Shown: piece after piece, positions 7,683-35,574 of the stretch | Numbering within the stretch: position 1 is the stretch's first letter | Layout: each line of letters opens with the position of its first letter | Assembly: GCA_964350935.1 (NCBI GenBank) | Contig: CAYGLL010000001.1 | Span: 38,090-102,089 of the forward strand | DNA from: an uncultured Candidatus Saccharibacteria bacterium | Lineage (GTDB): Bacteria > Patescibacteriota > Minisyncoccia > Phycocordibacterales > CAYGLL01 | Direction: 5' to 3' | DNA: 64,000 bases | The notes under the pieces: model-generated | The model's database searches: none | What the model saw: the letters and a program-made list of their open reading frames with translations, nothing else | What the model was told of the DNA's origin: nothing | Position numbers and translations under genes: made by a program

Positions 7683-8690
7683 ATGAAAAGCGTGCAGAAG
7701 CTTAAAGGAAAACGCGTCTTAGTTTTGGGCGGTGCCGGCTTTATCGGTACGCATCTCATTCAACGTCTCTTAACACGTGAAGATGTCGCGAGTATTGTGC
7801 TTGTTGATTCGCTCCACTCTGCACTTGGAAGCTCAACCGAAAACATCCGGCCATTTTTAAAACGTATTAACTTTATTCAAGGGGATATGGGTGATAAAAA
7901 ACTCATGGACAAACTTGTCCGTGAGGCTGATGTTATTTTCAACTGCGCCGGCCAGACATCGCATAGTTTCTCGCTCGAAGATCCGATTTTGGATACGCTC
8001 ATAAACTGTCTCGGCAACCTCACACTTTTAACCGCCATTAAGGATGCAAAGGTGAAGCCGACCGTAGTGTTTCTTTCGTCGAGTACCCTGGTGGGAAAAG
8101 CGCAGCGCGAGATTATTGATGAAACACATCCTGAAGAGCCGCTTGAAATTTATTCTGCCAACAAAGGTGTCGCTGAAAAGTACTATCGCATTTTTAACCG
8201 CGTGTATGGAATTCCAACGGTTGGCGTACGCCTCGCGAATGTGTACGGACCATTTGGAAGAGCAAAACCCTCCTTTGGCTTTATGAATTATTTTATTAAC
8301 CTCGCGAAAGAAGGGAAGCCGATAACTATTTATGGCGATGGTGGACAACTGCGTAATGTAACCTATGTTGAGGATGTGGTTGAAGCAATTATCCGTGCTG
8401 CAGGTGAGGCGAAGCTTCACGGCGGATCATTTTTTGTAACGCATCATGATCACTATACCATCAAGGAAATTGCTGAAGAGATGGTGCGCGTTTTTGAAGG
8501 AGGCTCAGTCGTGCACGTCCCGTGGCCTGACGAGCGCAAGCAGATTGAAATTGACGCGGTAAGGTTTTCCGCTGAACGTTTCCACGGTCACACCGGCTGG
8601 AAAGCAGAGCATTCGCTTAGGGAGGGCTTAGAAAAAACAAAAAAAATAATTATCGACCCGCGACTTTTCTACGGCGACGGAGACTATTGA
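7683..8690 (+). CDS. NAD-dependent sugar-nucleotide epimerase/dehydratase (extended SDR)
   Basis: VLVLGGAGFIGTHL Rossmann motif, YSANK (YxxxK) catalytic motif. Confidence 0.8.
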   Translation: MKSVQKLKGKRVLVLGGAGFIGTHLIQRLLTREDVASIVLVDSLHSALGSSTENIRPFLKRINFIQGDMGDKKLMDKLVREADVIFNCAGQTSHSFSLEDPILDTLINCLGNLTLLTAIKDAKVKPTVVFLSSSTLVGKAQREIIDETHPEEPLEIYSANKGVAEKYYRIFNRVYGIPTVGVRLANVYGPFGRAKPSFGFMNYFINLAKEGKPITIYGDGGQLRNVTYVEDVVEAIIRAAGEAKLHGGSFFVTHHDHYTIKEIAEEMVRVFEGGSVVHVPWPDERKQIEIDAVRFSAERFHGHTGWKAEHSLREGLEKTKKIIIDPRLFYGDGDY

Positions 8691-8715
8691 CAAAAATATA
8701 AATTTGGTCTATTGT
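8687..8715 (+). promoter_or_regulatory. Sigma70-like promoter, TTGACA-17-TATTGT, with extended motif gaCTATTGACAaaa
   Basis: TTGACA at 8687-8692, 17-nt spacer, TATTGT at 8710-8715. Lies upstream of the 8772 gene, which has the SD aaaggtga. Confidence 0.5.
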
Positions 8716-8771
8716 AGTTTTTGAACAAGTGCGCTCTTTGAGTGCGAAAACAACAACAGAAAGGTGACTGA

Positions 8772-9365
8772 ATGAATGCTGATCAGGTTGCGAGACTTAA
8801 TTTCGATGAACTTAAGGCGGAAGATCGGGAAGTCCTCCTTCTTAAGGCTTTCCGATGGATGCGGGCACAGAAGCGCCTGCCGTATCCCGTGTACATGGAA
8901 CGCGTGCAGACATTTCCGACTGTCTTTGTCGATGTGTTCACGTGTGTGAAGGGTCCCTTCGGTTGGGAGATTCTACTTGATGAAAGGCCAGCAAACGATG
9001 CTCATTTCGCAGGGAGACACCATGTTCCGGGTACGACAGTTATGCTTCGAGACTCATTCGAAGTTGCAAAGAATGTGACGATAGATGAATCTGTCTCGTC
9101 GGGCGCAGGGGATACCCTCAGATTCCTTGGTGTGATCAATTTTCCGAAAATGCACCGCGAGCACGCGGTAGTCATTGCATATCTGAGAATTCTTTCTCAG
9201 AAACCGGAGAAGCCTGCATCTGGTGCTTTCCACCGGCTTGCCGAGCTGCCTGAACCTTTGATCGAGCATCAGCGTCGTACCTACTTTCATCTGGTCCGTG
9301 CTGCTCTTGAATGCGGAGAACGCTGGCAGCCGATTGTGGTCGAGCTGCTCGAAGCGACTGAGTGA
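8772..9365 (+). CDS. Hypothetical protein (197 aa) embedded in the sugar locus
   Basis: ORF with a good SD. I recognise no family; it is followed by a strong terminator. Confidence 0.4.
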   Translation: MNADQVARLNFDELKAEDREVLLLKAFRWMRAQKRLPYPVYMERVQTFPTVFVDVFTCVKGPFGWEILLDERPANDAHFAGRHHVPGTTVMLRDSFEVAKNVTIDESVSSGAGDTLRFLGVINFPKMHREHAVVIAYLRILSQKPEKPASGAFHRLAELPEPLIEHQRRTYFHLVRAALECGERWQPIVVELLEATE

Positions 9366-9376
9366 TCTTTCATTTA

Positions 9377-9407
9377 AGCGCCACCGAACATTTCGGTGGC
9401 GCTTTTT
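9377..9407 (+). terminator. Rho-independent terminator
   Basis: GCGCCACCGAA-CAT-TTCGGTGGCGC perfect 11-bp stem followed by TTTTTT. Confidence 0.85.
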
Positions 9408-9423
9408 TAATTCCGTTGTTACT

Positions 9424-10359
9424 ATGAAGGTTATGAAAAAACAGACGGTCTTTATTACCGGAGCATTGGGCCATATCGGCTCGCGTTTGATACGGGAAAT
9501 TTCTGAAACAGTGGGAGAAGTTCGGATGCTCGACAATATGGAAGCAAAGCGTTTCTCGTCGCTCTATGATCTGCCGACGAACATTAAGTATATTTTTTAT
9601 GAGCAGGATATCCGCGCCGCCGACTTTGATGAGCTTTTGAAAGGTGTTGATGTGGTCATTCATCTTGCGGCACTTTCCGAGGCAGAAAAAAGTGTCGAGT
9701 ATAAAACCCTGGTTGAGGAGGTGAATATTAAAGGCCTCGACCGGGTTATTCAGGCTGCGATGAAAAACAAGGTAAAACTCATTTTTCCATCAACGACGAG
9801 CGTGTATGGTGACAAAATTCCGAAAGTTTTAGAGACAGGCGAGATCAGCCCGCAGAGTCCGTATGCCGATTCGAAGTTTCGAGGCGAAGAGATCATCAGA
9901 AGTTACGGCGGTAAAGGTTTGAAGTTTACGATCTTTCGCTTTGCAACGATTTACGGATTTTCCCCCGGCATGCGTTTTTCGACCGCAGTCAATCGTTTTG
10001 TCTGGCAGGCGGCAACTGGCCGGCCGCTTTCAGTCTGGAAAACAGCTTTGAAGCAGAAACGCCCCTATCTTTACCTAGGAGATTGTATTCAGGCGATTAA
10101 TCTCATTCTTGAAAAAAATATTTTTGAAGGTGAGGTGTACAACGTTTGTACTGAAAATACTGACGTTGAAACGGTAACCGAAGCGATTAAGGAATTTATC
10201 CCAAAGCTTGAGATCGGTTTAGTTGACTCAAAAGTTATGAATAGTTTTTCATACGATCTCATTACCGAAAAAATAACCAAGCTCGGTTTTGTGCCGAAGG
10301 GCAATCTACGCTCTGGTATTAAAGAAATGATTGATCATTTTCAAGGGCTTACAGGATAG
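9424..10359 (+). CDS. NAD-dependent epimerase/dehydratase family protein
   Basis: FITGALGHIGSRL Rossmann motif, YADSK catalytic motif. Start chosen at the ATG at 9424 (MKVMKKQ); the ORF-track start at 9298 would overlap the upstream gene and its terminator. Confidence 0.75.
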   Translation: MKVMKKQTVFITGALGHIGSRLIREISETVGEVRMLDNMEAKRFSSLYDLPTNIKYIFYEQDIRAADFDELLKGVDVVIHLAALSEAEKSVEYKTLVEEVNIKGLDRVIQAAMKNKVKLIFPSTTSVYGDKIPKVLETGEISPQSPYADSKFRGEEIIRSYGGKGLKFTIFRFATIYGFSPGMRFSTAVNRFVWQAATGRPLSVWKTALKQKRPYLYLGDCIQAINLILEKNIFEGEVYNVCTENTDVETVTEAIKEFIPKLEIGLVDSKVMNSFSYDLITEKITKLGFVPKGNLRSGIKEMIDHFQGLTG

Positions 10360-10397
10360 GTTGTTACGCTTCTCTGTTTCAGATAGTATATAGCGAT

Positions 10398-11567
10398 ATG
10401 TCTATTAAACTTTCTCCTGTTATTGATTTCGGCAAGATGCCGATTGCCAATGCCTTTTTGACTCCCGAGGAATTTTCTAAGGAATTTTTTTACGATATGG
10501 TGGTGGGTTTTGATTCCAAGACTTCTGCGATTGGACTCGTAAACACCGTGCCACCTGAAAAAATGTTCCACGACCATTACGCCTTTTTCTCGTCGACTTC
10601 GCAGTATATGAAGCGTCATTTTGCGGAGACTGCAAAAAAGTTGGAGCCATATGCTAGAAAGGGAATTGTGGTTGAGATGGGCTCGAATGACGGCGTGATG
10701 CTTGAGGCCTGGAAGGAAATGAACGTGCGTGCAATCGGTGTTGAACCTTCCAGCAACGTCGCAGCCGCCTCAAAAGCAAAAGGGCATGAAGTGATCGTTG
10801 ATTTTATGAGCGAAAAAGTTGCTGATGAAATTTTGAGCCGCGGAAAAGTGAGTGTGGTCTACGGCGCGAATGTTTCGTGTCACATTGAAAATTTTGAAGC
10901 ATATGTCAAAAATGTCGCGAAGCTCATTGGTCGGGAAGGAGTCTTCGTGTTCGAGGATCCTTACTTTATCGATATGGTTGAAAAAACCTCGTACGATCAG
11001 GTATACGACGAACATTTGTGGTACTTCACGCTCGCGTTTATTAACAACATGTTCAATCCACTTGGTTTCCATGTTTTTGATTGTGAACACATTCCAGTTC
11101 ACGGCGGAGAACTGCGCATGTACGTCGGACATAAAGATACGCATAAAATAACATCACGCGTCGGGGAGTGGGTGGTGAAAGAAAAAAATCTTGAGGGACA
11201 ACTTGAAACCTTGAAGAAGAACATCGCGCTTTCCAAAACGAAACTTGTCGATTTACTCAACGCGCTCAAAAAAGAACACAAAAAGATTTGTGGCTTCGGC
11301 GCAACCTCTAAAGGTGTCATTGTTACGAACTACTGCGGCATCGGTCCTGATCTTGTTCCATTTATCACTGACAACACGCCGATCAAGCAGGGAAAGTTTT
11401 ATCCCGGCGTTCACATTCCGATCGTGCCGCAGGAGGAGTTTAAAAATGTCGATATCGGGGTGTTATTTGCGTGGAATCATTTTGAAGAGATCGCCAAGTC
11501 ACAGAAATGGTTTACCGACGGGGGCGGCAAATGGGTGACGCATGTACCGATGCCACGAATTGTATAA
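10398..11567 (+). CDS. Sugar C-methyltransferase family protein (TylC3/EryBIII-like, C-terminal C-methyltransferase domain)
   Basis: The C-terminal ...GFGATSKGVIVTNYCGIGPDLVPFITDNTPIKQGKFYPGVHIPIVPQEE...GVLFAWNHFEEI matches the conserved C-methyltransferase C-terminal domain. The N-terminal Cys4 zinc-binding module typical of the family is absent. Confidence 0.65.
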   Translation: MSIKLSPVIDFGKMPIANAFLTPEEFSKEFFYDMVVGFDSKTSAIGLVNTVPPEKMFHDHYAFFSSTSQYMKRHFAETAKKLEPYARKGIVVEMGSNDGVMLEAWKEMNVRAIGVEPSSNVAAASKAKGHEVIVDFMSEKVADEILSRGKVSVVYGANVSCHIENFEAYVKNVAKLIGREGVFVFEDPYFIDMVEKTSYDQVYDEHLWYFTLAFINNMFNPLGFHVFDCEHIPVHGGELRMYVGHKDTHKITSRVGEWVVKEKNLEGQLETLKKNIALSKTKLVDLLNALKKEHKKICGFGATSKGVIVTNYCGIGPDLVPFITDNTPIKQGKFYPGVHIPIVPQEEFKNVDIGVLFAWNHFEEIAKSQKWFTDGGGKWVTHVPMPRIV

Positions 11568-11585
11568 GGTTTAAGACCAATTTTC

Positions 11586-12230
11586 ATGGATAACCAGAGT
11601 GAATGGCTGTTTCTCGCTAATGAGCTTTTATCGCCCGTATTGCCGCAGACATCGTTCGATGCGTTTTTTGTGCATGGCTGGGCAGATCTTCACGACGAAA
11701 TGATTGAGTTTGTTGGTGTCGCATATAAAAAATATAAACCGCGGCTGGTTCTCATAAACGGAGAAAAAGAATATGAACCAGGAAAACCAGGTGTCGAATA
11801 TTGGAAGACAGAGCTTGAAAAGCGAGGGATTCCTCGTGATGCAATTCGCGGGGCCATTCCCGGACTTCATACCCTTTACGAAGCGAAGAGTTTCTGTGCT
11901 ATTGGAGCCGCTGAAAAACTCTCTAAAATCCTTGTTATCTCAGTTCCTCAGCATGTAATTCGGGCATTTTTGACTAACGTAGGCTGGGCCTTACATGAGA
12001 AGTTGCCTTTTAGGTTTGCGGGTCGCAGTATGGCTGGGGTAGAGTGGAACGAGCCGATTAGTGTAGAGGGTCTCATGAATAATCACGAAGAGACTACACG
12101 CGTTGGCCGTTTGGTTTCCGAATGTGGCCGGATCGTTAAATATCGATCGTTGTACGAAGCGGGGGACGATAATTGCGCGATCGCATCTTTTAACGAAGGC
12201 GCAGACCATATACGAAATTTTTCAAAATAA
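11586..12230 (+). CDS. Hypothetical protein, possibly DUF218/YdcF-like
   Basis: 214-aa ORF with weak resemblance only. Confidence 0.3.
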   Translation: MDNQSEWLFLANELLSPVLPQTSFDAFFVHGWADLHDEMIEFVGVAYKKYKPRLVLINGEKEYEPGKPGVEYWKTELEKRGIPRDAIRGAIPGLHTLYEAKSFCAIGAAEKLSKILVISVPQHVIRAFLTNVGWALHEKLPFRFAGRSMAGVEWNEPISVEGLMNNHEETTRVGRLVSECGRIVKYRSLYEAGDDNCAIASFNEGADHIRNFSK

Positions 12231-12254
12231 ATTATCAGTAATTACGAAAAAGAT

Positions 12255-13004
12255 ATGCCGAAAAAAAATCCAACCATTCTCGTCACTGGCGGCAGCGGTC
12301 TCTTGGGGAGCGAGATTCGAAAGCTCGAGCCTTCGGTTATTGCTCCGACTCATGCAGAGATGGATGTTCTCGATATCGCATCTGTCGAAAAGGCGCTGAA
12401 AAAATATAAACCTCAGATTGTCATTCATGCTGCAGCTGCGATGAGGCCACCGGAGCATGAAACCGACCCCATTCCCGGACTTACCGTGAATATTCAAGGC
12501 ACGGTCAATATGGCTCGCGTGTGCCACGATCTTTCAATCCGGCTTGTCTACACATCGACCGATTATATCTACAAAGGTGATGGGCCACATCTTGAATCTG
12601 AGCCGGTATTAGGGGCGCATAAATTTGCGTGGTCAAAATTGGGTGGCGAGTGCGCGGTTCGATTGCTCACCAATTCGCTCATCCTCCGACTCTCCTTCGG
12701 CCCCGTTCCGTTTCCATGGGAGAAGGTGTATGAAAATCAGACGAACTCGAAGCTCTACGTTGATGAGATCGCTCCACTGGTGTTACAGGCTGCACTTTCG
12801 GAAGCTATCGGAGTTTTGAATATTGGCGGTCCGCGTACGACACTGGAAGAATATGCAAAACGGACACGACCGGATATAAAAACGATTCCACTGCCGGAAT
12901 GGGCGCCTCAGGATACTTCGCTTGAGCTTGGTAAAATGCGTGACACCTTGAGTATTAAGAATTTATGGTCAGTTTTGAAGCATGGGAATAAAAAAAACTC
13001 CTAG
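12255..13004 (+). CDS. RmlD-like NAD(P)-dependent sugar-nucleotide reductase (short form)
   Basis: ILVTGGSGLLGSEI Rossmann motif, YTSTDYIYKG, 249 aa. Confidence 0.55.
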   Translation: MPKKNPTILVTGGSGLLGSEIRKLEPSVIAPTHAEMDVLDIASVEKALKKYKPQIVIHAAAAMRPPEHETDPIPGLTVNIQGTVNMARVCHDLSIRLVYTSTDYIYKGDGPHLESEPVLGAHKFAWSKLGGECAVRLLTNSLILRLSFGPVPFPWEKVYENQTNSKLYVDEIAPLVLQAALSEAIGVLNIGGPRTTLEEYAKRTRPDIKTIPLPEWAPQDTSLELGKMRDTLSIKNLWSVLKHGNKKNS

Positions 13005-22887: not shown

Positions 22888-22898
22888 TCGCGGGTCTA

Positions 22899-22927
22899 TT
22901 GTCAATTACTCGCCAAGCGTGTATTGT
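22899..22927 (+). promoter_or_regulatory. Promoter TTGTCA-17-TATTGT with extended motif ggTCTATTGTCAAtt
   Basis: Found upstream of the NeuB-like gene; it shares the CTATTG(A/T)CA extended -35 with four other sites. Confidence 0.4.
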
Positions 22928-22974: not shown

Positions 22975-24519
22975 ATGGCCCAAACAAATACGCGATTTGA
23001 TTTCAATAACCTCTTCACCTTTGAGATGGCTAATAACCACCAGGGAGATGTTTTGCATGGAAAAAAAATAGTTGAGGCGATGTCGAAGATTGCCAAGGAG
23101 TTTAACATTCGTGCTGCGGTAAAACTTCAGTTCCGTAATCTCGATACTTTCATTCACCCTGACTATCGAAAGCGCACCGATGTAAAACACATTCCACGTT
23201 TTCTCTCGACCGAACTTTCTAAAAAAGAATTTAAGACACTTGTTGACGCTGTTCGCGAAGAGGGGCTCTTTACCATGGCAACTCCTTTTGATGAAGTTTC
23301 AGTAGATTTTTTAACTGACCTTGGCGTTGAAATTATTAAGGTTGCAAGTTGCAGTGCCCACGACTGGCCGCTCTTGGAAAAAATTGCAGCAGTCGGAAAA
23401 CCGGTTATTGCATCCGTCGGAGGACTCACGCTTCCCGAAATTGATCGCGTGGTAAGTTTCTTCGAACATCGTGGAACTGATTTTGCACTTATGCACTGCG
23501 TTGCGGTTTATCCGACACCGTCTGAAAAACTTTCACTCGAACAGATTGCTCTCATGAAAGAGCGTTACCCGCAGCTTACCGTTGGCTTTTCAACTCACGA
23601 GCCGCCGGAAAATACAACCGCAATCGCGCTCGCATACGCTAAAGGCGCTCGCATCTTTGAAAAGCATGTCGGTGTTCCCACAAAAACAATTACGTTAAAT
23701 TCATATTCGGCAAACCCGGAACAAGCTCGCGCGTGGGTCGCTTCGTTTGTCGAAGCGGTTAAATCAATCGGTGAAGGAGAGCGGGTGATTGAAGAGGCTG
23801 AACGTGTCGACCTCAAATCTCTGATTCGCGGTGTCTACGCAAGGAAGCCTATTAAAAAAGGTCAGAAACTCAAAACGTCAGATGTATTTTTCGCCATGCC
23901 GTTTCAGGGAGATGAACAGATGAAGAGCGGTCGTTTTCGTGAAGGATTCGTGGCTGATAAAAATTATAAGAAAAACGAAGCATTGAATCGTTCGATTGAG
24001 CCCGTGCGGCCTACCAAAAAAGACATTGTGTACGGAACGGTCCGGGAGGTAAAAGCGATGTTAAACAAAGCACGCATTCCGCTCTCGCATGATTTTATGG
24101 TTGAGATCTCGCACCACTATGGATTGGAGAAGTTCAACGAAACCGGCTGCGTCATTATTGATTGTGTGAATCGTGAGTACGCCAAAAAACTCATTATTCA
24201 GTTACCCGGTCAGTTTCATCCCGTTCACTACCACAAACTTAAGGACGAAACGTTCCAGGTTCTCTCAGGGAGCATGGTTGCCAATATCGAAGGAAAGGAA
24301 CGTACGCTCTATCCTGGAGACACGCTGTGGGTTCCACGTGGAGTGTGGCACAGCTTCCACAGCGATACCGGGGTTATTTTTGAAGAGATTTCAACGACTG
24401 CATATGACATGATGGGCGATTCGTATTATGTCGACAAAAAAATTGCCGCAACACCGCGTGAGGTTCGCAAGACAAAACTTAATAACTGGGGACGCTACCA
24501 GTTTGAAAACGAGGAGTAA
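22975..24519 (+). CDS. NeuB-family nonulosonic (sialic/legionaminic/pseudaminic) acid synthase with SAF domain and extra C-terminal cupin domain
   Basis: FEMANNHQGD (AEIGxNHnG-like) TIM-barrel motif, SAF region (IKKGQKLKTSDVFFAMP), and a roughly 150-aa C-terminal cupin (GQFHPVHYHKLKDETFQVLSG...GDTLWVPRGVWHSF). Confidence 0.75.
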   Translation: MAQTNTRFDFNNLFTFEMANNHQGDVLHGKKIVEAMSKIAKEFNIRAAVKLQFRNLDTFIHPDYRKRTDVKHIPRFLSTELSKKEFKTLVDAVREEGLFTMATPFDEVSVDFLTDLGVEIIKVASCSAHDWPLLEKIAAVGKPVIASVGGLTLPEIDRVVSFFEHRGTDFALMHCVAVYPTPSEKLSLEQIALMKERYPQLTVGFSTHEPPENTTAIALAYAKGARIFEKHVGVPTKTITLNSYSANPEQARAWVASFVEAVKSIGEGERVIEEAERVDLKSLIRGVYARKPIKKGQKLKTSDVFFAMPFQGDEQMKSGRFREGFVADKNYKKNEALNRSIEPVRPTKKDIVYGTVREVKAMLNKARIPLSHDFMVEISHHYGLEKFNETGCVIIDCVNREYAKKLIIQLPGQFHPVHYHKLKDETFQVLSGSMVANIEGKERTLYPGDTLWVPRGVWHSFHSDTGVIFEEISTTAYDMMGDSYYVDKKIAATPREVRKTKLNNWGRYQFENEE

Positions 24520-25363: not shown

Positions 25364-26722
25364 ATGAAAACAGTCTTTGTCTCAATCCTTTCCGGTATTG
25401 AAGCTAAGAGTATTTTGCGTACCAATGTGGTGGCGCGGATACTTGAACGGGAGGGCACCCGCGTCGTCCTATTAGTTAAAACGGCTGAGCGCGCCGAGTT
25501 TTATAAAAAGGAATTTCACCACGGGCATCTTGTCTATGAGGTCATCGGGCCGGAAGGTTTTTCACGCTTCGATCCGTTTATGGAATGGTTGAAGCACTAT
25601 CTTGTTAACACGAAAAGCCAGAAACTGTATCGACGGCTTGCTTTTCTTGAAAACAAAAATATTTTTGCGTATGTCTCAAGCTCGGTTTTCTCCGGTATTG
25701 TTTCAAATCGATTTTTTCGTAGTCTTTCAAGGTGGTTTGACCGTTTTGTAGTCCGCGATCACAACTTCGACGGTCTTCTTGAAAAGTATAATCCTGACGC
25801 TATTTTTCTTGCCAACCTTTTTGATCCACGGGAAATCAGCCTTTTGCGCGGGGCCCGAATAAGAAAAATTAAAACCATAGGATTTATCAACTCGTGGGAC
25901 AAAATTACGGCAAAGGGGTTTGTACGACTACTGCCTGATACACTGATTGTTCCCAATGATATTGTTAAAGACGAGGCGCTTCGCTACGTTAACATTTCCG
26001 CTTTGCGAATAGTTGTTTCCGGACCGCCGCAGTACGACACTTATTTTAATAGGGAAGGAATTGAGAGCCGCGAATCATTTTTAAAAAAAATTCACGCTGA
26101 TTCTTCGAAAAAACTCATTGTCTTTGCCCCGATGGGGTTGGCATTCAGCAACTCTGACTGGCAGGCGATTGATTACCTGCATGAAGTGATTGAGGGCCAT
26201 TTTAAAAATGATGCCGAGCTCCTCGTGCGTTTTCAGCCGAACGATTTTTTCGGTGATGAGGGTTTCAAAACACGCCCGTGGCTCAGGTTCGATCTTCCGG
26301 GCACCCGTTTTACCACAACGCGCGGCGTTGACTGGGATATGACGACTGACGATTTGATACATTTGAAAAACACACTTCACCATATGCATATGCTGATTTC
26401 GTACGCGTCCTCAATTGCGATTGACGCGGCCATTTTTGATAAGCCGGTGATTAACATTGGTTTTGAATTGCGTGATGATCAGTCGCCTCTCAAAACACCC
26501 ACCCTGCGTTACACCACCGCACATTATTCTAAGGCGCTTGATACGGGCGGTATTTTTTTGGCAACGACAAAAGAACATTTGATTGAGAAGATTCGAACCT
26601 ACCTCTCTGATCCCGCGACTGATGCCGGCGGGAGATCCCGATTGGTACAGGAACAGTGCTCGTTTACCGACGGAAAAGCCGGAGCGCGAATTGCAGAATC
26701 TATCCTTTCATGCCTACAATGA
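25364..26722 (+). CDS. TagB/TagF-like glycerophosphotransferase family protein, paralog 3
   Basis: Collinear with paralogs 1 and 2; C-terminal QCSFTDGKAGARIAESI motif. Confidence 0.55.
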   Translation: MKTVFVSILSGIEAKSILRTNVVARILEREGTRVVLLVKTAERAEFYKKEFHHGHLVYEVIGPEGFSRFDPFMEWLKHYLVNTKSQKLYRRLAFLENKNIFAYVSSSVFSGIVSNRFFRSLSRWFDRFVVRDHNFDGLLEKYNPDAIFLANLFDPREISLLRGARIRKIKTIGFINSWDKITAKGFVRLLPDTLIVPNDIVKDEALRYVNISALRIVVSGPPQYDTYFNREGIESRESFLKKIHADSSKKLIVFAPMGLAFSNSDWQAIDYLHEVIEGHFKNDAELLVRFQPNDFFGDEGFKTRPWLRFDLPGTRFTTTRGVDWDMTTDDLIHLKNTLHHMHMLISYASSIAIDAAIFDKPVINIGFELRDDQSPLKTPTLRYTTAHYSKALDTGGIFLATTKEHLIEKIRTYLSDPATDAGGRSRLVQEQCSFTDGKAGARIAESILSCLQ

Positions 26723-26735
26723 TCGTTATCTCACT

Positions 26736-27980
26736 ATGAACCAGCCACTACCACCTAAACGAAAAATTTGTGTCGTGAACGGAAAGCGTGGCGGTTTTAA
26801 CGCGCTTCTTCCCACCATGCGTGCGATCGATCAGTCGCCCGATCTTCTACTCCAGGTGGTGCTCACCGATATGCATCTTTCAAAGCAGTTTGGTCATACA
26901 CTCGACTATGCCAAGCGTTTTATCGATATCTCAAAAACCGTTCCTCTGAATCAGGCCGGTGATACACAGATTGATCGCATTCACGCGCTCTCGCGGGGTT
27001 TGGCGGGTATTGCAGATGCGTTTAATGAACTTAAGCCGGATATCGTTCTTTTGCTCGGAGACCGCTCAGAGACGCTTATAGCCGCTTTTGCAGCGGTTCA
27101 GCTGAAGATACCGGTTGCCCATATACAAGGGGGGGAGGTGTCGGGGAATCTTGATGAGATTCATCGCCACGCCATTACCAAACTTTCGCATATTCATTTT
27201 ACTGAAACAGAACTTGCACGTCGTCGAGTTCTTGAGCTCGGTGAAGAAATCTGGCGCGTGCATCGCGTAGGTGCTCCTTACATTGATTTTATTAATCTCA
27301 GACTATACACACCAAAAGAAGAGGTTCGGAAGAAATTCAACATGGGTTCCGATGAGAACTTTATTCTGGTGCTCCAGCATCCGGTCACCACTGAGCCTGA
27401 GAAGTCGAATGCTCATATGAAAGAAATTCTTGCGGCTGTTAAAGAAACTGGTTTAAAAGCGATTGTGGTCTACCCGTGTTCAGATCCCGGTTATCAGGGA
27501 ATCATTGATGCGATCGAAGAAGAAAAAAATAATCCCGAGATTTCGATTTACAAAAATATTCCGGCGGAAGACTTTATCGGATTGCAGGCCGCAGCGTCAG
27601 TTTTTGTCGGAAACTCAAGTGCGGGTGTGTATGAAGCGCCGTACCTCAAGTGTCCTTTTGTAAATGTCGGCCGTCGACAGATCAAACGCGAGCGCGAGAA
27701 CAACTCGATCGACGTTTCTCCCACCAAAGAATCAATCGCGGCGGGAATTCATAAAGCTCTTCACGACGAATCATTCAGAAAATCTCTCGAAACTGTTTCG
27801 TTTGTGTACGGCGACGGCACTGCATACCGCAGTATCGTCAACGTGCTTCGAAAAATTCCACTGGGACGACGTTTGTTTGAAAAGCGTCTCACCTACATGA
27901 GTACCCGCCGCCGTCTCTATAATCGCTATATAAAAAGGTACGTCGATCTTCTTCGTCGTTTAAAACCGTCGAGAAAATAG
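26736..27980 (+). CDS. UDP-N-acetylglucosamine 2-epimerase, hydrolysing type (NeuC-like)
   Basis: ICVVNGKRGGFNALLP...LLLGDRSETL...HIQGGEVSG...HRHAITKLSHIHF motifs of the UDP-GlcNAc 2-epimerase family. Start set at ATG 26736 (MNQPLPP); the ORF-track start at 26583 overlaps the upstream gene. Confidence 0.7.
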   Translation: MNQPLPPKRKICVVNGKRGGFNALLPTMRAIDQSPDLLLQVVLTDMHLSKQFGHTLDYAKRFIDISKTVPLNQAGDTQIDRIHALSRGLAGIADAFNELKPDIVLLLGDRSETLIAAFAAVQLKIPVAHIQGGEVSGNLDEIHRHAITKLSHIHFTETELARRRVLELGEEIWRVHRVGAPYIDFINLRLYTPKEEVRKKFNMGSDENFILVLQHPVTTEPEKSNAHMKEILAAVKETGLKAIVVYPCSDPGYQGIIDAIEEEKNNPEISIYKNIPAEDFIGLQAAASVFVGNSSAGVYEAPYLKCPFVNVGRRQIKRERENNSIDVSPTKESIAAGIHKALHDESFRKSLETVSFVYGDGTAYRSIVNVLRKIPLGRRLFEKRLTYMSTRRRLYNRYIKRYVDLLRRLKPSRK

Positions 27981-27996
27981 TTTTCCTTACATACAA

Positions 27997-28027
27997 AAAA
28001 TACCCACTATTGACAGGGTATTTTTTG
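27997..28027 (+). terminator. Rho-independent terminator with a -35-like TTGACA in its loop
   Basis: AAAATACCC-ACTATTGACA-GGGTATTTT followed by TTTTTTG. The loop carries cACTATTGACAggg, which doubles as a candidate -35 for the SQD1-like gene. Confidence 0.7.
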
Positions 28028-28127
28028 TATGTAATCTAACGTCTATGTCTGAAACACTATCACTACGGTAGGGGTTTCAGTTGGTACAGCTCTTTACAAT
28101 AACAACCAACAACAAAGGAACAATAGA

Positions 28128-29345
28128 ATGAAGATTATGATCCTGGGCGGCCTCGGTTATTTGGGCCATCCCACCGCACTGCATTTCTCTAATCGCGGCC
28201 ATGAAGTCACGATTGTCGATAACGACATCAAACGTCATTGGGAGTCTCAGGTAGGAGCCCAGCCCCTGTTTCCGATTCCGTTTCCGCTTCAGCGGCTTGA
28301 GCGTTGGAGGCAGGTGCGGCCGAACGCTGCTCCAATCAAGTTTTTCGCCTCGGACATCGCGAAGCATTACTCGAACATGGACGACATCATGCGGCAGGTT
28401 ATGCCGGATGTGATCATTCACTACGCTGAGCAGCCCTCAGCGCCGTTCTCGATGATCTCGCCGTCCCGCGCCGCGGAGACATTCACCAACAACTGCGTGG
28501 GGACTCTTTTTCTTCTCCATGCAATGAAAAATCATTGTCCCAATGCTCACCTGGTGAAGCTGGGGACGATGGGTGAGTACGGTACCCCGAACATTCCGAT
28601 CGAAGAAGGCTGGATCGAGATCGAGCACAAAGGCAAGAAGGATCGGCTACCGTTCCCGAAAATGCCCGGCTCGTTCTATCACGCCAGCAAGGTTGCTGAC
28701 TCGACCTTTATCGAGTTCACCTGCCGTGCGTGGGGAATCCGTGCAACTGACCTCAATCAGGGTGTCGTCTACGGAGTCTCAACTGAGGAAACTGACCTCC
28801 ATCAGGAACTCACTACCTCGTTCCACTACGATTCCTGTTTCGGGACGGTTCTGAACCGGTTTATCGTTCAGGCAGTCATCGGTCATCCGCTTACCGTTTA
28901 CGGTGACGGCGGACAGACTCGCGGCTTCCTGAACATCAGGGACACCATTCAGTGCGTTGAGATTGCAGTCAATAATCCTGCTGGTATCGGTGAGTTCCGA
29001 GTCCTGAACCAGTTCACTGAGATTTTTTCGGTGAAACAGTTGGCTGAAATGGTTGCCCGTGTCGGCGAGAAAGAACTTGGATCGTCAGTTAAAATCAAGT
29101 CGATCCCGAATCCTCGTGTTGAGAAGGAGGCGCATCTTTACGATGCGGCGAACAGCGCTTTCTTTGCTCTCGGGCTCAATCCAGTCTTACTCACCGATGA
29201 GGTGATCGCGTCCATGATCTCTCGCGTTGAGAAGGCTCGCACGAACATTCAGGCTTCGGTCATTCTGCCGCAGACGAAGTGGCGGCAGAAGCGCGAGCTT
29301 CGGCCTGCGACCGCTATGGTCACCGGCGGCGGTGATACAATCTGA
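28128..29345 (+). CDS. UDP-sulfoquinovose synthase (SQD1/SqdB/Agl3 family)
   Basis: MKIMILGGLGYLGHPTALHFS...VKLGTMGEYGTPNIPIEEG...FYHASKVADS...GIRATDLNQGVVYGV...GHPLTVYGDGGQTRGFLNIRDTIQCVE matches the conserved SQD1/SqdB signature blocks I recognise. The gene is monocistronic, bracketed by terminators at 27997 and 29369, and GC-richer than its neighbours. Confidence 0.7.
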   Translation: MKIMILGGLGYLGHPTALHFSNRGHEVTIVDNDIKRHWESQVGAQPLFPIPFPLQRLERWRQVRPNAAPIKFFASDIAKHYSNMDDIMRQVMPDVIIHYAEQPSAPFSMISPSRAAETFTNNCVGTLFLLHAMKNHCPNAHLVKLGTMGEYGTPNIPIEEGWIEIEHKGKKDRLPFPKMPGSFYHASKVADSTFIEFTCRAWGIRATDLNQGVVYGVSTEETDLHQELTTSFHYDSCFGTVLNRFIVQAVIGHPLTVYGDGGQTRGFLNIRDTIQCVEIAVNNPAGIGEFRVLNQFTEIFSVKQLAEMVARVGEKELGSSVKIKSIPNPRVEKEAHLYDAANSAFFALGLNPVLLTDEVIASMISRVEKARTNIQASVILPQTKWRQKRELRPATAMVTGGGDTI

Positions 29346-29368
29346 GACCTTTGTTGGTGGTTGGTGCA

Positions 29369-29399
29369 ACCGCCCTTGCGAAAGCAGGGGCGGTTTTTT
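29369..29399 (+). terminator. Rho-independent terminator
   Basis: CCGCCCTTGC-GAAA-GCAGGGGCGG (one G-U pair) followed by TTTTTT. Confidence 0.8.
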
Positions 29400-29415
29400 C
29401 TTGCGAACGTGTCTA

Positions 29416-29444
29416 TTGACAAAATCTAATATTTGGTCTATTAT
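29416..29444 (+). promoter_or_regulatory. Sigma70-like promoter TTGACA-17-TATTAT with extended motif gtCTATTGACAaaa
   Basis: Perfect -35, 17-nt spacer, TATTAT -10, about 50 nt upstream of ATG 29494. Confidence 0.55.
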
Positions 29445-29493: not shown

Positions 29494-30153
29494 ATGAAAG
29501 AACGTCAATTAACCGCTGAAGATCAGGTGTTTCTTGCAGTTCTGCCGATTTCGACAAATGAAAAGAAAGTCATTGAAGCCTGGTGGAAATTGGAGGAACA
29601 CAAGGTTAGTCCCACCCGGACACAGTTAAAAAAGTATTACCTGTGGGTCGGGTACGAGATTCTTTTGTCACTCGTGTTTTTCATCTCCGTTCTTTTTCCT
29701 GAATCCCCGGCAATGGTGCTGGTGTCGAAGATTGCTCTCGTATGCGTATGGGTGAATGCCGCGTGTTATTTCCTTTTGAGTACGGGGGGCATGCTCTACG
29801 TTAACTATTTAACAAAAAATGGGGACGAGTGGATTCTCTTCAATGTGTACCTGCGCAAAGATAATCTGCAGGAGTTGGTGAGGTATTTCACACCGGTCCG
29901 GATAGCTATTTGCGCCACCCATCTTTTGTTGGTGATTTCTCTTCTGGTTGCGGGGCATGTTCTCATTGCCACGGTCACTGCTTTCGTGCTCTTCCTGATA
30001 TACGTTGTGTACGGGTGGGTGCACCGGCAATTCATACGGAATGTTCTCAAGGAGTTTGCCAGCCACCTTGATGCTACGCTCGAAGCCATGAAAAGGTCGT
30101 GGATATGGCATAGAGAGTCGAGGATTGCTGATGAGTCTGAGGTGTGTAAGTAG
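29494..30153 (+). CDS. Hypothetical integral membrane protein (219 aa, about 4 TM helices)
   Basis: Start chosen at ATG 29494 downstream of the promoter. The ORF-track start at 29227 lies inside the SQD1-like gene and its terminator. Confidence 0.45.
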   Translation: MKERQLTAEDQVFLAVLPISTNEKKVIEAWWKLEEHKVSPTRTQLKKYYLWVGYEILLSLVFFISVLFPESPAMVLVSKIALVCVWVNAACYFLLSTGGMLYVNYLTKNGDEWILFNVYLRKDNLQELVRYFTPVRIAICATHLLLVISLLVAGHVLIATVTAFVLFLIYVVYGWVHRQFIRNVLKEFASHLDATLEAMKRSWIWHRESRIADESEVCK

Positions 30154-30160
30154 TTTTAGA

Positions 30161-30192
30161 CCCCGTTTCGCATTGCGGAACGGGGTTTTTAT
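30161..30192 (+). terminator. Rho-independent terminator (loop motif TTCGCATTGCGG)
   Basis: CCCCGTTTCG-CATTG-CGGAACGGGG followed by TTTTT. Confidence 0.75.
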
Positions 30193-31162: not shown

Positions 31163-31212
31163 CACCCGGTATCTTCTGAAACAAAGTACGGTGTGATAAG
31201 GTTGTATACGTC

Positions 31213-32130
31213 ATGAGAATTATTGTCACGGGCGGATCGGGATTTATCGGTTCGCATCTCATTGAAGAGTTGGTTGCACACGGTCATCAGGTTTTTTCTG
31301 TTGATGTGCGCGACCCGCTTTCAAAGGTGAAAGGCGTTACGCATACAACTGGAGATATTTGCGACCATGAAACGCTCACTAAAACATTTGCCAGTTTTAA
31401 ACCTGATGCTGTTGTCCATCTTGCCGCACTCCCGTCTATTCAGCAGTCAATCAAAGAGCCTCACGTTTCGCTCCGTACGAATGTAGCCGGAACCTATTCA
31501 GTAATTGAGGCAGCGCGATCATCAGGTGCTTCGCGCGTTGTTTTTGCTTCATCAGCCGCAGTTTACGGCAAGACGACGGAAGAGATGAAAGGAAAACCCA
31601 TTTCAGAAAGTGTGGCGCTTCAACCGTTGAATCCATACGCTTTGGCAAAAAAAATGGGTGAAGAGTTTATGCGAATGGCAGCTGACGAAAAATTGTGGAA
31701 ATCAATCGATGCTGTGTCGTTACGCTTTTTCAATGTGTACGGTCCGCGCAAACGCCGCGACTCGCCGTATCGAACGGCAATCGAAACGTTCACAGAAGTG
31801 TGGAAAGAAGGAAAGCCGTTTCCCATTTTTGGCGACGGAACCCAGCGTCGTGATTTTATATTTGTTAAAGATGTTGTCCGGGCCTTGCGTTTAGCGGCTG
31901 AGCGAACAGAAAAGTTTAAAGGCGAGATTATAAACATTGCGTATGGTAAAAACTTTTCCGTTATTGATGCGGCAAACTTTATCGGCGGTGAAACACATCC
32001 CAAAGATTTTTTACCGGCACGACCCGGCGAGATTAAAGAGTCTTTAGCCGATACCTCCAAGGCAAAAAAACTTTTAGGCTGGTCGGCGGAAGTTTCGTTT
32101 AAAGACGGGTTACAGGAATTAAAAAAATAA
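31213..32130 (+). CDS. NAD-dependent epimerase/dehydratase (UDP-sugar 4-epimerase-like)
   Basis: IIVTGGSGFIGSHL Rossmann motif, YALAK (YxxxK) catalytic motif. Confidence 0.8.
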   Translation: MRIIVTGGSGFIGSHLIEELVAHGHQVFSVDVRDPLSKVKGVTHTTGDICDHETLTKTFASFKPDAVVHLAALPSIQQSIKEPHVSLRTNVAGTYSVIEAARSSGASRVVFASSAAVYGKTTEEMKGKPISESVALQPLNPYALAKKMGEEFMRMAADEKLWKSIDAVSLRFFNVYGPRKRRDSPYRTAIETFTEVWKEGKPFPIFGDGTQRRDFIFVKDVVRALRLAAERTEKFKGEIINIAYGKNFSVIDAANFIGGETHPKDFLPARPGEIKESLADTSKAKKLLGWSAEVSFKDGLQELKK

Positions 32131-32132
32131 TT

Positions 32133-32822
32133 ATGCAGGTTGTCATTTTAGCCGGAGGAAAAGGCGAGCGGTTGCGGCCACTCACCAACAATATCCCCAA
32201 ACCTATGATAGAGGTTGGAGGAAAGCCGATACTTTTTCATATCATTGAGGCATTGCCACAGGAGATCACTGAGGTGTATGTGGTTGTCGGATACCACGGC
32301 GATGTTATCGAGAAAGCTTTTGCAAGCTACAACAAAGGGGGTAAAAAAATAATGTGCGTGAAGCAGGGAATCGAGAACGGTACGTTTGCAGCGCTTCAAA
32401 CTGTCGAGAAATTTTTGAAGGGAAGTTTTCTGGTTTTAAATGGAGATTCTTTATACTCAAAACCAGATCTTAAAGAATTATGTAAAAATTCGCTTTCAAT
32501 TTTGGTTCGTCACGAAGACTGGCCATCAGAGAGAACCGCTGCCTGTTTTTTTGACGAGAAAATGAATCTGAGTTCGATTCACGAGAAGGTTCCAAATTTA
32601 AAATATGAGTACGCCAATTGTGGTGCCTATGTTTTAACGCAGGCGATTTTTAGCGAGCCGATTACGCGTGGTCCTTCAGGTGAATCGTGGCTTTCGGCAA
32701 TGGTAGGAACACTTGCAACTAAGTCTTCGGTTCAGGGCGTGGTGGCAAAACAGTACTGTACCATTACTTCGATTGAAGATATTAAATTTTGCGAAACGGT
32801 GATTGCAAAATTTGACAAATAA
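32133..32822 (+). CDS. Sugar-phosphate nucleotidyltransferase (NTP_transferase family, short form)
   Basis: VVILAGGKGERLRPLTNNIPKPMIEV signature. Confidence 0.75.
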   Translation: MQVVILAGGKGERLRPLTNNIPKPMIEVGGKPILFHIIEALPQEITEVYVVVGYHGDVIEKAFASYNKGGKKIMCVKQGIENGTFAALQTVEKFLKGSFLVLNGDSLYSKPDLKELCKNSLSILVRHEDWPSERTAACFFDEKMNLSSIHEKVPNLKYEYANCGAYVLTQAIFSEPITRGPSGESWLSAMVGTLATKSSVQGVVAKQYCTITSIEDIKFCETVIAKFDK

Positions 32823-32896
32823 AATTTTTGTATTAGATTCAGAACAGAATATAAGGAGGTTGTAGTTTACAGCTGTAGCAAACGAAAGGGTTCTGA

Positions 32897-33505
32897 ATGA
32901 AAGAAAAATTACTGAATGCTCCTCAGTCAAAACTTGTGCTGGGTAAAGCAACGCCGGTTTATCAGGGGCCATTTATCACAGTCTCGAAAGTTCCTTTTAA
33001 AAAGAGAAAAAAGGGGAAGGAGGGTGTGTGGGAGGTGGTAACTCGCACGAACTCTCACGGGCCCACGGTGGCAATTGTTGGCGTCACACCGGACCTCAAT
33101 GTTGTTCTGGTGCGGGAGTACCGCATTCCGCTTAAACGCTGGGTGATCTCATTCTGTTGTGGGGCGATCAACGAAGATGAACAGGATTTTGACGCTGCGC
33201 GCCGCGAACTTCGAGAAGAGACCGGGTACGTTGTTCCGGAAAGAAAGATCACGAGGCTTTTCGAAGGTCCCTTCAGTCCGGCGCTTGGCCCGGACTCCAT
33301 GGCGGTTTTCGCAGGATTCAATGCTGTTTACGAAGGCATAAACTTTCGTGATCACGCTGAAGACATCGAGACCATTACGCTTCCCTTGGCAAGCGCTATG
33401 GACGAGCTCCTTGAGGTTTCGCACAAGGTCGCCGTTGATGTGAAAGTTTACGGAGCCCTTGCACGTATTTCACGCATCCTCGCTCGCAAGAGTTTGCTCG
33501 AGTAG
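32897..33505 (+). CDS. NUDIX hydrolase
   Basis: Nudix box GAINEDEQDFDAARRELREETGY (Gx5Ex7REUxEExGU). Confidence 0.8.
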   Translation: MKEKLLNAPQSKLVLGKATPVYQGPFITVSKVPFKKRKKGKEGVWEVVTRTNSHGPTVAIVGVTPDLNVVLVREYRIPLKRWVISFCCGAINEDEQDFDAARRELREETGYVVPERKITRLFEGPFSPALGPDSMAVFAGFNAVYEGINFRDHAEDIETITLPLASAMDELLEVSHKVAVDVKVYGALARISRILARKSLLE

Positions 33506-33514
33506 TTGGTTTGT

Positions 33515-33546
33515 AGGAGCGCCACTCTGTAGCGCTCCTTTTTCTT
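33515..33546 (+). terminator. Rho-independent terminator
   Basis: AGGAGCGC-CACTCTGTA-GCGCTCCT followed by TTTTTCTTTT. Confidence 0.8.
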
Positions 33547-33583
33547 TTGAAATTTTGTTTGCGGTGCTAGAGTTATACTTACT

Positions 33584-34297
33584 ATGGCAAACAAACCAGA
33601 AGTGCTGGCGACGGTGACTGCGCGCGGCGGATCAAAGCGCATTCCAAAAAAGAGCATCGTGCCGCTTTTAGGAAAACCCTCAATGGTGTGGGTTTTGGAG
33701 GTGCTTAAGAAATCAAAAACAATAACGCGCATAATTGTTGATACCGATGATGAAGAAATGGCTAAGGTGGGGAGAGCGGCCGGGGCTGAGATCCCGTTCA
33801 TGCGACCTAGGGAACTCGCCAGTGATTCCGCAGGACACCTCGCAGTTTTAAAACACGAACTCGAATTTTTTAAAGAAAAAGAAGGATACGTACCAGACGC
33901 AGTTGTGTTGATTCAGCCGACATCGCCACTCGTTGAAGCCGCTGACATTGATGCGGCAGTTGAACTCCTACTCAAAGAAAATCTCGACTCTGTGGAAACG
34001 GTTTTTGAGGTTGCAACCATTTTCCATCCCTATCGTGTTCGTGCAATTGATGAAAAAGGGGAGACCGGTTTTTTTATGCCGAAAGAGCGCGCGGAGGCGA
34101 TGAAAACCGGCGTCTGGCCAAAAATGTATGCAGTTGATGCAGTATTTTGTTTTAAGCCAAACAATCTCTACGAGTATGGAACAATTCAGGGCAAAAAAAG
34201 TAAGTCGGTCATCATACCGCGCGAGAAAGCTTGTGACATCGACGATCCCGCAGATATTGCGATTGCCGAAGCTCTGCTCAGAAAATTTAAATCATAA
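33584..34297 (+). CDS. Acylneuraminate (nonulosonate) cytidylyltransferase, NeuA/CTP_transf_3 family, copy 1
   Basis: ATVTARGGSKRIPKK...QPTSPL motifs. Confidence 0.75.
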   Translation: MANKPEVLATVTARGGSKRIPKKSIVPLLGKPSMVWVLEVLKKSKTITRIIVDTDDEEMAKVGRAAGAEIPFMRPRELASDSAGHLAVLKHELEFFKEKEGYVPDAVVLIQPTSPLVEAADIDAAVELLLKENLDSVETVFEVATIFHPYRVRAIDEKGETGFFMPKERAEAMKTGVWPKMYAVDAVFCFKPNNLYEYGTIQGKKSKSVIIPREKACDIDDPADIAIAEALLRKFKS

Positions 34298-34333
34298 AAG
34301 CAGTAAGAACTCTTATATTAACTCCTCGGTTCG

Positions 34334-34361
34334 GAAATAAAAGCGAAGACGCTTTTATTTC
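34334..34361 (+). other. Perfect 12-bp stem-loop (GAAATAAAAGCG-AAGA-CGCTTTTATTTC) in the intergenic region
   Basis: Read directly from the sequence. It may terminate the NeuA-like gene or belong to a small structured RNA. Confidence 0.5.
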
Positions 34362-34525
34362 ATACCACAGGGGTACCCCTAAAGGGACTTCCCGTTTTGT
34401 GAACAAAACGTAGGTCGCTTCTTGTTTGATAAATCAAACTAATGTCGCACCACAAGAGTGCTTCCAATTTCTACACTCGCCTTGCTCGTAAGAAATTTAG
34501 TCGCTCACTCTACATCGCTAATAAA

Positions 34526-34557
34526 GAAAAAACCGCCCCGAATTAATTGGGGCGGTT
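34526..34557 (-). terminator. Rho-independent terminator for the minus-strand DMT gene
   Basis: On the minus strand: AACCGCCCC-AATTAATTC-GGGGCGGTT followed by TTTTTT. Confidence 0.8.
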
Positions 34558-34562
34558 TGCTG

Positions 34563-35498
34563 TTAAAGAGCAATTAAGATTGTGCCTATGACAATCACGA
34601 TGCTTCCGATAAGGCGCAGCAGCGTGTTTTTCTCTCCCAGAAACCAGGTAGCGAAAAGGATAACCCAGAAGACTTGTGTCCTCCTCAGTGCTCCACCGTA
34701 CGGGGCGATGCCGTACAGAAACACAGCGTTTTGAAACGCAACGCCGATACCCATGAGAATTCCAACGAGAAACACAACGCCAAAGTGTTTCTTATCGTGT
34801 CCGTGCCAGCGCCCCCGAAGCGATGAGTGAATCCAGATTGCAAGAGCGACGAGTGCAAAAACTGCTCCGCTAAAGAATGACGGATTCGATGCCAGTGTCG
34901 CGAGCTTGTCGAAGTTGATCGCGATTGCACCAAGCCATGCGACGGCAAGCGCCAATCGCGCACCCGTACTTTGAGTCATACGCCACAACGGTGCCCCAAT
35001 CCATGCGAGGGTGTGGTGCCATGACAAGGGCGTTGATCGAGCAACCAGCCCGGGAAGTTTCACTTCCTTACCTTTGAGGTAGAGGATATAGGCGCCGAGT
35101 GCAATGAGGCCGATACCGATTCGCCCGTAGAATGTGGGCCATTCGCGAAGAATCAAGAAGGACATGACAATCGCGATTGCCGGCTGGGCGGTTGAGAGGG
35201 GTAAGACAATTGAGGCATCTTCCAGTTTGAGAGCTTTGACGTTCCAGAACTGAATCAGGATGTTTAAGGCAACGGAGACGAAGAAGGGTAGCCAGAAGGT
35301 AACAGTTAAATGAGGGACTCCACTTACGATAAGGCTTCCGATAATTCCGCTTGTCGCAGCACCCATCATTGAAGCAACGGTGACAACGTCCTCGTGAACA
35401 CCGAGGTGCTTTACAAACTTAGCCCTGAGAGTATTTTGAATTCCCGCAATGAAACCTCCAATGATACCAACGACAAGCATTGATTGAGTCGAGGTCAT
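34563..35498 (-). CDS. DMT-superfamily (EamA-like) transporter
   Basis: 311 aa with about 10 TM helices and two EamA-like repeats (for example ...ASIVLPLSTAQPAIAIVMSFLIL). Confidence 0.6.
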   Translation of the reverse strand: MTSTQSMLVVGIIGGFIAGIQNTLRAKFVKHLGVHEDVVTVASMMGAATSGIIGSLIVSGVPHLTVTFWLPFFVSVALNILIQFWNVKALKLEDASIVLPLSTAQPAIAIVMSFLILREWPTFYGRIGIGLIALGAYILYLKGKEVKLPGLVARSTPLSWHHTLAWIGAPLWRMTQSTGARLALAVAWLGAIAINFDKLATLASNPSFFSGAVFALVALAIWIHSSLRGRWHGHDKKHFGVVFLVGILMGIGVAFQNAVFLYGIAPYGGALRRTQVFWVILFATWFLGEKNTLLRLIGSIVIVIGTILIAL

Positions 35499-35545
35499 AG
35501 TTTTTAAGGAACATACTGTGGATCAAATTATCACGAAAAATTGTA

Positions 35546-35574
35546 TTGTCAATGTTAAGCTATCGTGGTACGAT
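35546..35574 (+). promoter_or_regulatory. Promoter TTGTCA-17-TACGAT with extended motif gtATTGTCAAtg
   Basis: Found upstream of NeuB copy 2; a second -10-like TATACT lies 10 nt before the ATG. Confidence 0.35.

Follow-up and report, generated by a model that had tools for sequence, protein, structure and literature searches.

Why do several putative promoters in a single stretch of bacterial DNA carry the same three bases, CTA, immediately before the −35 hexamer? The stretch (64,000 nucleotides, positions 38,090 to 102,089 of the forward strand of contig CAYGLL010000001.1; hereafter the window) had been read before from its letters alone. This sequence-only reading had listed five sites with an extended −35 element and had suggested that a common transcription factor or an extracytoplasmic function (ECF)-type sigma factor co-regulates the surface-glycan genes through them. 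Our analysis leads us to favor, on balance and with moderate confidence, a different answer, namely that the motif would be a clade-specific extended −35 element on the housekeeping promoters of separate, mostly terminator-insulated transcription units, with the CTA intrinsic to recognition by the polymerase.

The window has a G+C content of ~46% and encodes GyrA at 52793–55255. The best named relatives of this protein, 66–74% identical, belong to Paceibacteria, Taylorbacteria and other Parcubacteria metagenome-assembled genomes, with the Paceibacteria/Taylorbacteria proteins at ~70–74%; judged by these relatives, the host is an uncultivated member of the Patescibacteria (Candidate Phyla Radiation, CPR) with a Parcubacteria/Paceibacteria genome. 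According to Pfam scans of the open reading frames (ORFs), the first part of the window (0–47 kb) is mostly one large glycan biosynthesis locus, which contains sugar epimerases/dehydratases, a C-methyltransferase, an aminotransferase, many methyltransferases and glycerophosphotransferase-like proteins, together with two NeuB-type synthases, cytidylyltransferases, NUDIX proteins, EamA transporters and a Wzy_C/TPR protein. As the lineage background, 80 GyrA-anchored loci of related Paceibacteria were used (1.25 Mb in total). The relatives compared individually were L001 and L165, with GyrA 88% and 79% identical; L166 and L167/L168, with NeuB-cupin proteins 77% and 76% identical; and L169, L171, L172 and L173, with NeuB-cupin proteins 67–73% identical. 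An element acting at the RNA level was rejected because the window gave no Rfam match and contained no transfer RNA (tRNA).

All five of the sites listed before are present in the sequence at the coordinates given for them, and a one-mismatch search exposed a sixth. S1 (8684–8715) joins CTA TTGACA (8684–8692) through a 17-nucleotide spacer containing TTTGGTC to the −10 box TATTGT (8710–8715), and S2 (22896–22927) joins CTA TTGTCA to TATTGT, also over 17 nucleotides. At S3 (28007–28037), CTA TTGACA is followed after 16 nucleotides by TAATCT (28032–28037), and at S4 (29413–29444), CTA TTGACA is followed after 17 nucleotides by TATTAT. S5 (35543–35574) reads GTA, not CTA, before TTGTCA, with a 17-nucleotide spacer and TACGAT. 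The additional site, S6 (47866–47896), reads GTCTATTGACT, i.e., GT CTA TTGACT, with a 16-nucleotide spacer and TGa-TAGTTT. The six sites are intergenic and lie on the plus strand, and each faces a plus-strand start codon 47–90 nucleotides downstream, in agreement with the earlier view that such promoter-like elements precede separate transcription units. Furthermore, terminators bracket S1, S3 and S4, making these insulated units.

What kind of promoters would these be? The −35 box matches TTGACA at 6/6 positions at S1, S3 and S4 and at 5/6 positions at S2, S5 and S6; the −10 boxes all fit TAnnnT; the spacers are 16–17 nucleotides long; and an extended −10 element (TGn) is present at S5 and S6. 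In generic promoter scans, S1 (10/12) and S4 (11/12) were the top promoter-like sites of the 8–28 kb and 28–48 kb regions, respectively. The 128 upstream TTGAC sites in the 80 related loci give the grammar TTGAC(A/T), TG at −15/−14, and TAnnnT. Across the window, TTGACA is depleted (19 found versus 41 expected), a deficit of the kind that selection against spurious promoters produces. Canonical group-1 sigma-70 promoters (−35 TTGACA, 17-nucleotide spacer, −10 TATAAT, optional TGn) resemble the six sites in hexamers, spacing, orientation and distance to the start codon, as well as in the TGn that S5 and S6 carry and in the coding depletion of TTGACA. Taking the hexamers and their spacing together with the TGn of S5 and S6 and the agreement with the lineage-wide grammar, we infer that transcription starts at these sites and that they are, in kind, ordinary housekeeping (group-1 sigma-70-type) promoters. 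Unlike canonical sigma-70 promoters, they add a CTA that abuts the hexamer, is over-represented and is kept in a narrow clade.

The CTA prefix is more than chance. CTATTGWCA has four exact matches in the window, all on the plus strand and all intergenic, versus 0.69 expected, and only 1 of 100 shuffles reached four. In an unbiased k-mer count, CTATTGAC, GTCTATTG, ATTGACAA and TTGACAAA were the most intergenic-specific words of the window, each found in four intergenic segments and nowhere in ~58 kb of coding sequence, while TTGACAA/TTGTCAA was found in seven intergenic segments versus three coding occurrences. CTA precedes 5 of the 21 intergenic TTG[AT]C[AT] boxes in the window versus 9 of 563 in the 1.25 Mb of related Paceibacteria loci (binomial P 1.7e-5; family-wise P 4e-4 over all 64 prefixes), and when S1 and S4 are collapsed to a single event, the enrichment still has P 2.6e-4 (0.017 Bonferroni-corrected). 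The lineage background for CTA before −35 boxes is 1.6–2.4%, and the usual weak prefix preference in relatives is T-rich, e.g., TTT and TAT. A general lineage feature was rejected as an explanation of the prefix, as the 80 loci show no preference for CTA. The sequence-only reading had held that the three bases upstream of the −35 box are conserved beyond the need of the hexamer, and both this enrichment and the orthologous promoters of relatives bear it out. Nor is the extended motif equally frequent in coding sequence, a result that would have spoken against that reading; in the window, CTATTGAC has no coding occurrence.

Is the prefix also kept in relatives? At S6, the orthologous promoter in L001 and L166 keeps CTATTGACT and the extended −10 TGTGATA, which are the sole conserved blocks across the window, L001 and L166, while the spacer and both flanks have diverged. 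Given the background column identity, P is ~0.02 for the retention of three further columns in each of the three lineages. At S2, the orthologous promoter in L167/L168 reads CTATTGACA, followed after 16 nucleotides by TAAAGT. In L171, the 10-mer CTATTGTCAA lies on the opposite strand at 9952–9966, 5′ of the orthologous NeuB-cupin gene; this inverted copy reads GATAGTTGACAATAG on the plus strand, giving TTGACA-17-TATTAA. In these comparisons of orthologous promoters, nothing was conserved further upstream of CTA. Since the prefix is kept in L001, L166 and L167 and is missing from more distant relatives, the extension is a property of a narrow clade (window, L001, L166 and L167; 46–52% G+C), not of Paceibacteria generally. 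A glycan regulon conserved across relatives was rejected, as L169, L171, L172 and L173 have similar loci without CTA promoters. A metagenome scan with the 405-residue epimerase encoded downstream of S3 returned only loci at most 61% identical, none of them with the motif and none of use for footprinting.

In the mechanism that we favor, a subset of promoters in the host and its closest relatives would have the −35 element extended upstream to CTA-TTGAC(A/T), often followed by a further A. The CTA would be read together with the hexamer by the RNA polymerase holoenzyme, through sigma region 4 or an adjacent contact, or else would be contacted by something bound in fixed register with the hexamer. 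Either way, the extension would belong to the promoter and would not act as a regulon signal of its own. We favor a polymerase-intrinsic element because the block is short and asymmetric, its orientation and its distance to the −10 box are constant, nothing is conserved upstream of CTA, and the genes behind the motif are functionally unrelated. One known system to compare is the UP element or its proximal subsite for the C-terminal domain of the polymerase alpha subunit, which the extension would resemble as a promoter-strength element upstream of the −35 box that is read by the polymerase. UP elements consist of A/T tracts between about −38 and −59. Unlike them, the extension has only 3 nucleotides, contains a C and abuts the hexamer, and the flanks beyond it are GC-rich and unconserved; the bases 5′ of CTA (acggaga, cgcgggt, ataccca, aacgtgt and agcccgt) do not form an A/T tract. 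A literature search on the motif string returned only unrelated oligonucleotides, and as far as that search showed, a three-base upstream extension of the −35 box is undescribed.

S1 and S4 are two copies of one promoter cassette. From CTATTGACAAAA to TATTRTA, they are identical at 28 of 33 bases, and a weaker similarity runs ~20 nucleotides further upstream; the 33-nucleotide module is found nowhere else in the window or in the fetched loci apart from contigs of the same strain. The spacer element that the sequence-only reading had noticed at two sites is an exact 11-mer covering spacer and −10 sequence, TTTGGTCTATT, which lies at 8703–8713 and 29432–29442 and at none of the other sites. At S1, the TGA stop codon of the upstream epimerase gene (7683–8690) falls within the −35 box. 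The gene that follows (8772–9365) encodes a divergent NUDIX-like protein of 197 residues, which belongs to a small family (Pfam NUDIX matches in 9 of 30 members) and shows no similarity to the NUDIX gene at 32897. S4 begins 17 nucleotides past a strong terminator (29368–29395) and precedes an ORFan gene (29494–30153) for a predicted membrane protein of 219 residues, which had no homolog but itself among 5.8 billion proteins, and then a second strong terminator (30158–30188). The possibility that the genes downstream of S1 and S4 are paralogs was rejected, as they have no mutual similarity.

A separate observation concerns the unit behind S1. A strong terminator (9376–9404) separates the S1-driven NUDIX-like gene from a 13-kb sugar-modification operon that starts at 9424. 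Because the 58-nucleotide gap ahead of this operon contains no promoter-like site, the operon may rely on read-through of the terminator, which would then be an attenuator.

The remaining sites differ in their settings. S2 lies upstream of the NeuB-cupin gene (22975–24519) and holds the 9-nucleotide palindrome ATTGTCAAT. S3 lies, as had been noticed before, with its −35 box in the loop of a terminator: a perfect 19-bp inverted repeat (27987–28005 and 28016–28034, within the 27987–28037 region) forms a terminator-style hairpin (−24.2 kcal/mol, z −7.4) whose 10-nucleotide loop, ACTATTGACA, contains the extended −35 box, and the last bases of the 3′ arm also belong to the weak −10 box TAATCT. This hairpin resembles the other A-tract/U-tract bidirectional terminators of the genome, e.g., the one at 50374–50417. 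As we found no other promoter candidate for the epimerase gene that follows (28128–29345, 405 residues), a terminator-embedded promoter at S3 is plausible. S5 lies between divergent genes, and its palindromic −35 region (ATTGTCAAT, 35545–35553) can be read in both directions. On the plus strand, GTA TTGTCA-17-TACGAT points toward the NeuB gene at 35637; on the minus strand, a perfect TTGACA (35552–35547) is followed after 16 nucleotides by TGa-TAATTT (35530–35525), pointing toward an EamA transporter gene (34563–35498). S6 lies upstream of a gene with a GTG start (47978–49009) that encodes a 343-residue protein of unknown function.

Directly after the −10 box of S6, there is a leader with a hairpin and a U-tract (47898–47925). 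The hairpin and the T-rich run are kept in four lineages, with counterparts at ~4955–4985 in L001, ~17690–17720 in L166 and ~5890–5925 in L165, and the changes between them preserve pairing (CTCAC/GTGAG, GTCAC/GTGAC and ACTCAC/GTGGGT). It is possible that this hairpin serves as a leader attenuator or a protein site.

Several observations weigh against a polymerase-intrinsic element or qualify individual sites. Only a subset of the promoters of the window carries CTA (about a quarter of the TTGWCW boxes), which is also how a regulon would look, and the promoters without it include those of the ribosomal-protein-S1-like gene and of a conserved small RNA. CTA does not seem to compensate for a weak −10 box either; the −10 match is equal in CTA and non-CTA promoters. 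S2 and S5 score 9/12, a score that the generic scan meets equally often in shuffled sequence, and the same scan does not call S3, whose −10 box matches TATAAT at only 3/6 positions. At S5, the C of CTA is missing and the minus strand gives the better reading. Among relatives, the prefix is lost at the orthologous site of S6 in L165 (TAA-TTGACT) and L169 (TAC-TTGCAA), and the orthologous S2 promoters of L166, L169 and L173 are without CTA. To our knowledge, no base-specific sigma-70 contact three bases upstream of the hexamer has been established. The only CPR set of start sites and promoters found in the literature is that of Nanosynbacter, a Saccharibacterium, and shows canonical elements (PMC12641261); none was found for Paceibacteria.

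Could the motif instead be the site of a regulator? CTATTGAC(A/T) might be a site or half-site, overlapping the −35 box, for a clade-specific transcription factor acting as a repressor or a class-II-type activator on a small regulon including several glycan units. The restriction of the prefix to about a quarter of TTGWCW promoters at a family-wise P of 4e-4, the palindrome ATTGTCAAT in S2 and S5 and the further spacer sequence common to S1 and S4 would all suit such a factor, and a precedent for lineage-specific promoter motifs tied to a transcription factor is reported (PMC6873888). The inverted CTATTGTCAA at the orthologous S2 position of L171 points the same way, because independence of orientation suits a protein site better than a polymerase contact; yet this inversion could be chance, as TTGACA followed by ATAG is a short coincidence. 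The palindrome occurs only at S2 and S5, and elsewhere the right half-site matches CAATAG at 2–4 of 6 positions. No clear dyad or direct-repeat symmetry was seen at S1, S3, S4 or S6, the sequence 5′ of CTA is not conserved, and the −35 boxes already match the consensus, which would leave no need for an activator. The downstream genes are of mixed kinds as well (a NUDIX-like gene, NeuB-cupin, an epimerase, an ORFan membrane protein and a protein of unknown function), the prefix is missing from other glycan promoters, and the scanned ORFs of the window gave no DNA-binding domain. A known counterpart is the promoter whose −35 box is overlapped by a regulator site, as with class II CRP/FNR sites at −41.5 and the pho boxes of PhoB; there too, a conserved overlap or extension is present on a subset of promoters. 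CRP/FNR class II and PhoB sites are dyads or direct repeats of 18–22 bp that usually replace a poor −35 box. Unlike them, the block described here is 9–10 nucleotides long, mostly asymmetric, and includes a consensus −35 box. We regard a factor site as possible but unlikely. Its broader form, in which a clade-specific factor (a small DNA-binding regulator or a second sigma-70-family paralog) controls a discrete group of terminator-insulated single-gene cassettes together with glycan units through CTATTGAC(A/T), seems to us rather doubtful. Two candidate repeat structures were also rejected: a 13-nucleotide palindrome CTATTG-W-CAATAG, the right half of which is poorly matched at most sites, and a direct repeat of GTCTATTG at 25-nucleotide spacing across the −35 and −10 boxes of S1, S2 and S4, which is missing at S3, S5, S6 and the orthologs and probably reflects a coincidence of TATTG in both boxes.

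As for the proposal that the sites co-regulate the surface-glycan genes, S4 precedes the ORFan membrane protein and S6 the unknown 343-residue protein, and the TTGACA promoters of the glycan-related units at 32897, 39915, 34563 (minus strand) and 44252 (minus strand) lack CTA; the motif is not specific to glycan genes. The cognate regulator gene that was to be looked for did not turn up among the window ORFs scanned: no Sigma70_r2/r4 or helix-turn-helix (HTH) Pfam match was found, with a few ORFs unscanned and the scan of 26583–27980 not covering HTH domains, and four scanned proteins (214, 152, 125 and 112 residues) match no family. An ECF-type sigma factor, or another sigma-70-family paralog dedicated to envelope and glycan genes, would account for an extended and unusually well conserved −35 motif and for non-consensus −10 boxes (TATTGT twice, TAATCT and TAGTTT). 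ECF promoters also have a highly conserved extended −35 element and often serve envelope functions. They typically combine an AAC-type −35 with a CGT-type −10; neither was seen at our sites, where TTGACA-like and TAnnnT boxes at 16–17 nucleotides follow the group-1 pattern of the lineage and TGn, as found at S5 and S6, is a feature of groups 1/2. Moreover, ECF sigma factors usually control their own expression and have their targets, regulators or anti-sigma factors encoded beside them (PMC7826278), whereas no sigma or anti-sigma gene was found nearby among the scanned ORFs of the 64-kb window. The ECF suggestion thus fails on the sequence of both boxes and on this context, and we consider an alternative sigma factor very improbable. 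A further explanation is shared ancestry plus coincidence, with S1 and S4 as a recent duplication and the other prefixes arising by chance or by neutral hitch-hiking beside a constrained hexamer. The 28/33 identity of S1 and S4 and their weaker similarity over ~20 nucleotides upstream fit this, as do the loss of the prefix in several relatives and the −35 flanks conserved between the window and L001 where promoters lack CTA (CA-TTGACT at window 62271 and L001 19527; AC-TTGACT at window 50259 and L001 7427). However, the enrichment survives the collapse of S1 and S4, the prefix persists in L166 despite a randomized spacer and flanks, it also occurs at a different orthologous promoter in L167, and CTATTGAC is absent from ~58 kb of coding sequence. 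Coincidence is, in our judgment, improbable.

Other features of the window were recorded alongside the promoters. Between a DHH gene and an S1-domain gene lies a candidate small RNA of ~75 nucleotides (window 50259–50370, plus strand; L001 7427–7540), with its own promoter, TTGACT-N17-TGa-TAAGGT, and a terminator formed by CCCCTCTTCGGAGGGG and then U5. It is nearly identical in L001, with a compensatory stem change (CCCCTC/GAGGGG versus CCCCAC/GTGGGG); the 50259–50370 segment contains no ORF, is not a tRNA, and matches no Rfam family above threshold. At 51566–51740 of the window (minus strand; L001 8696–8930, minus strand), the ribosomal-protein-S1-like gene has the promoter TTGTCA-16-TATACT and a leader of ~140 nucleotides in which the blocks ACGCAGAAAGTAACCCC and GGAAC.TCTGT.TTTTT are kept in four relatives, and it is possible that this leader is autoregulatory. 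ACGT(T)(T)(T) precedes four TTGACA boxes, at 45407 (minus strand), 45992 (minus strand), 50184 (plus strand) and 54363 (minus strand), as in gtacgttTTGACA and ccacgttTTGACA; only the box at 45407 is intergenic, and the pattern may be chance. Finally, a tandem array of five small genes (57138–59252) matches the T4SS_pilin/TrbC family and is kept in L001 and L165.

What would an extended −35 element mean for these bacteria? The understanding of the glycan locus is unchanged by it; the locus consists of short units bounded by terminators and ordinary promoters. If a clade-specific factor were to prove true after all, sequence alone would have been enough to define a regulon in an uncultivated lineage of Paceibacteria, one for which we found no promoter or regulon literature. 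More broadly, promoter grammar in the Patescibacteria/CPR is almost unstudied, and the CTA extension helps to predict promoters and operons in these genomes and would direct attention to a small regulon or to a trait of the RNA polymerase sigma factor that is specific to the lineage.

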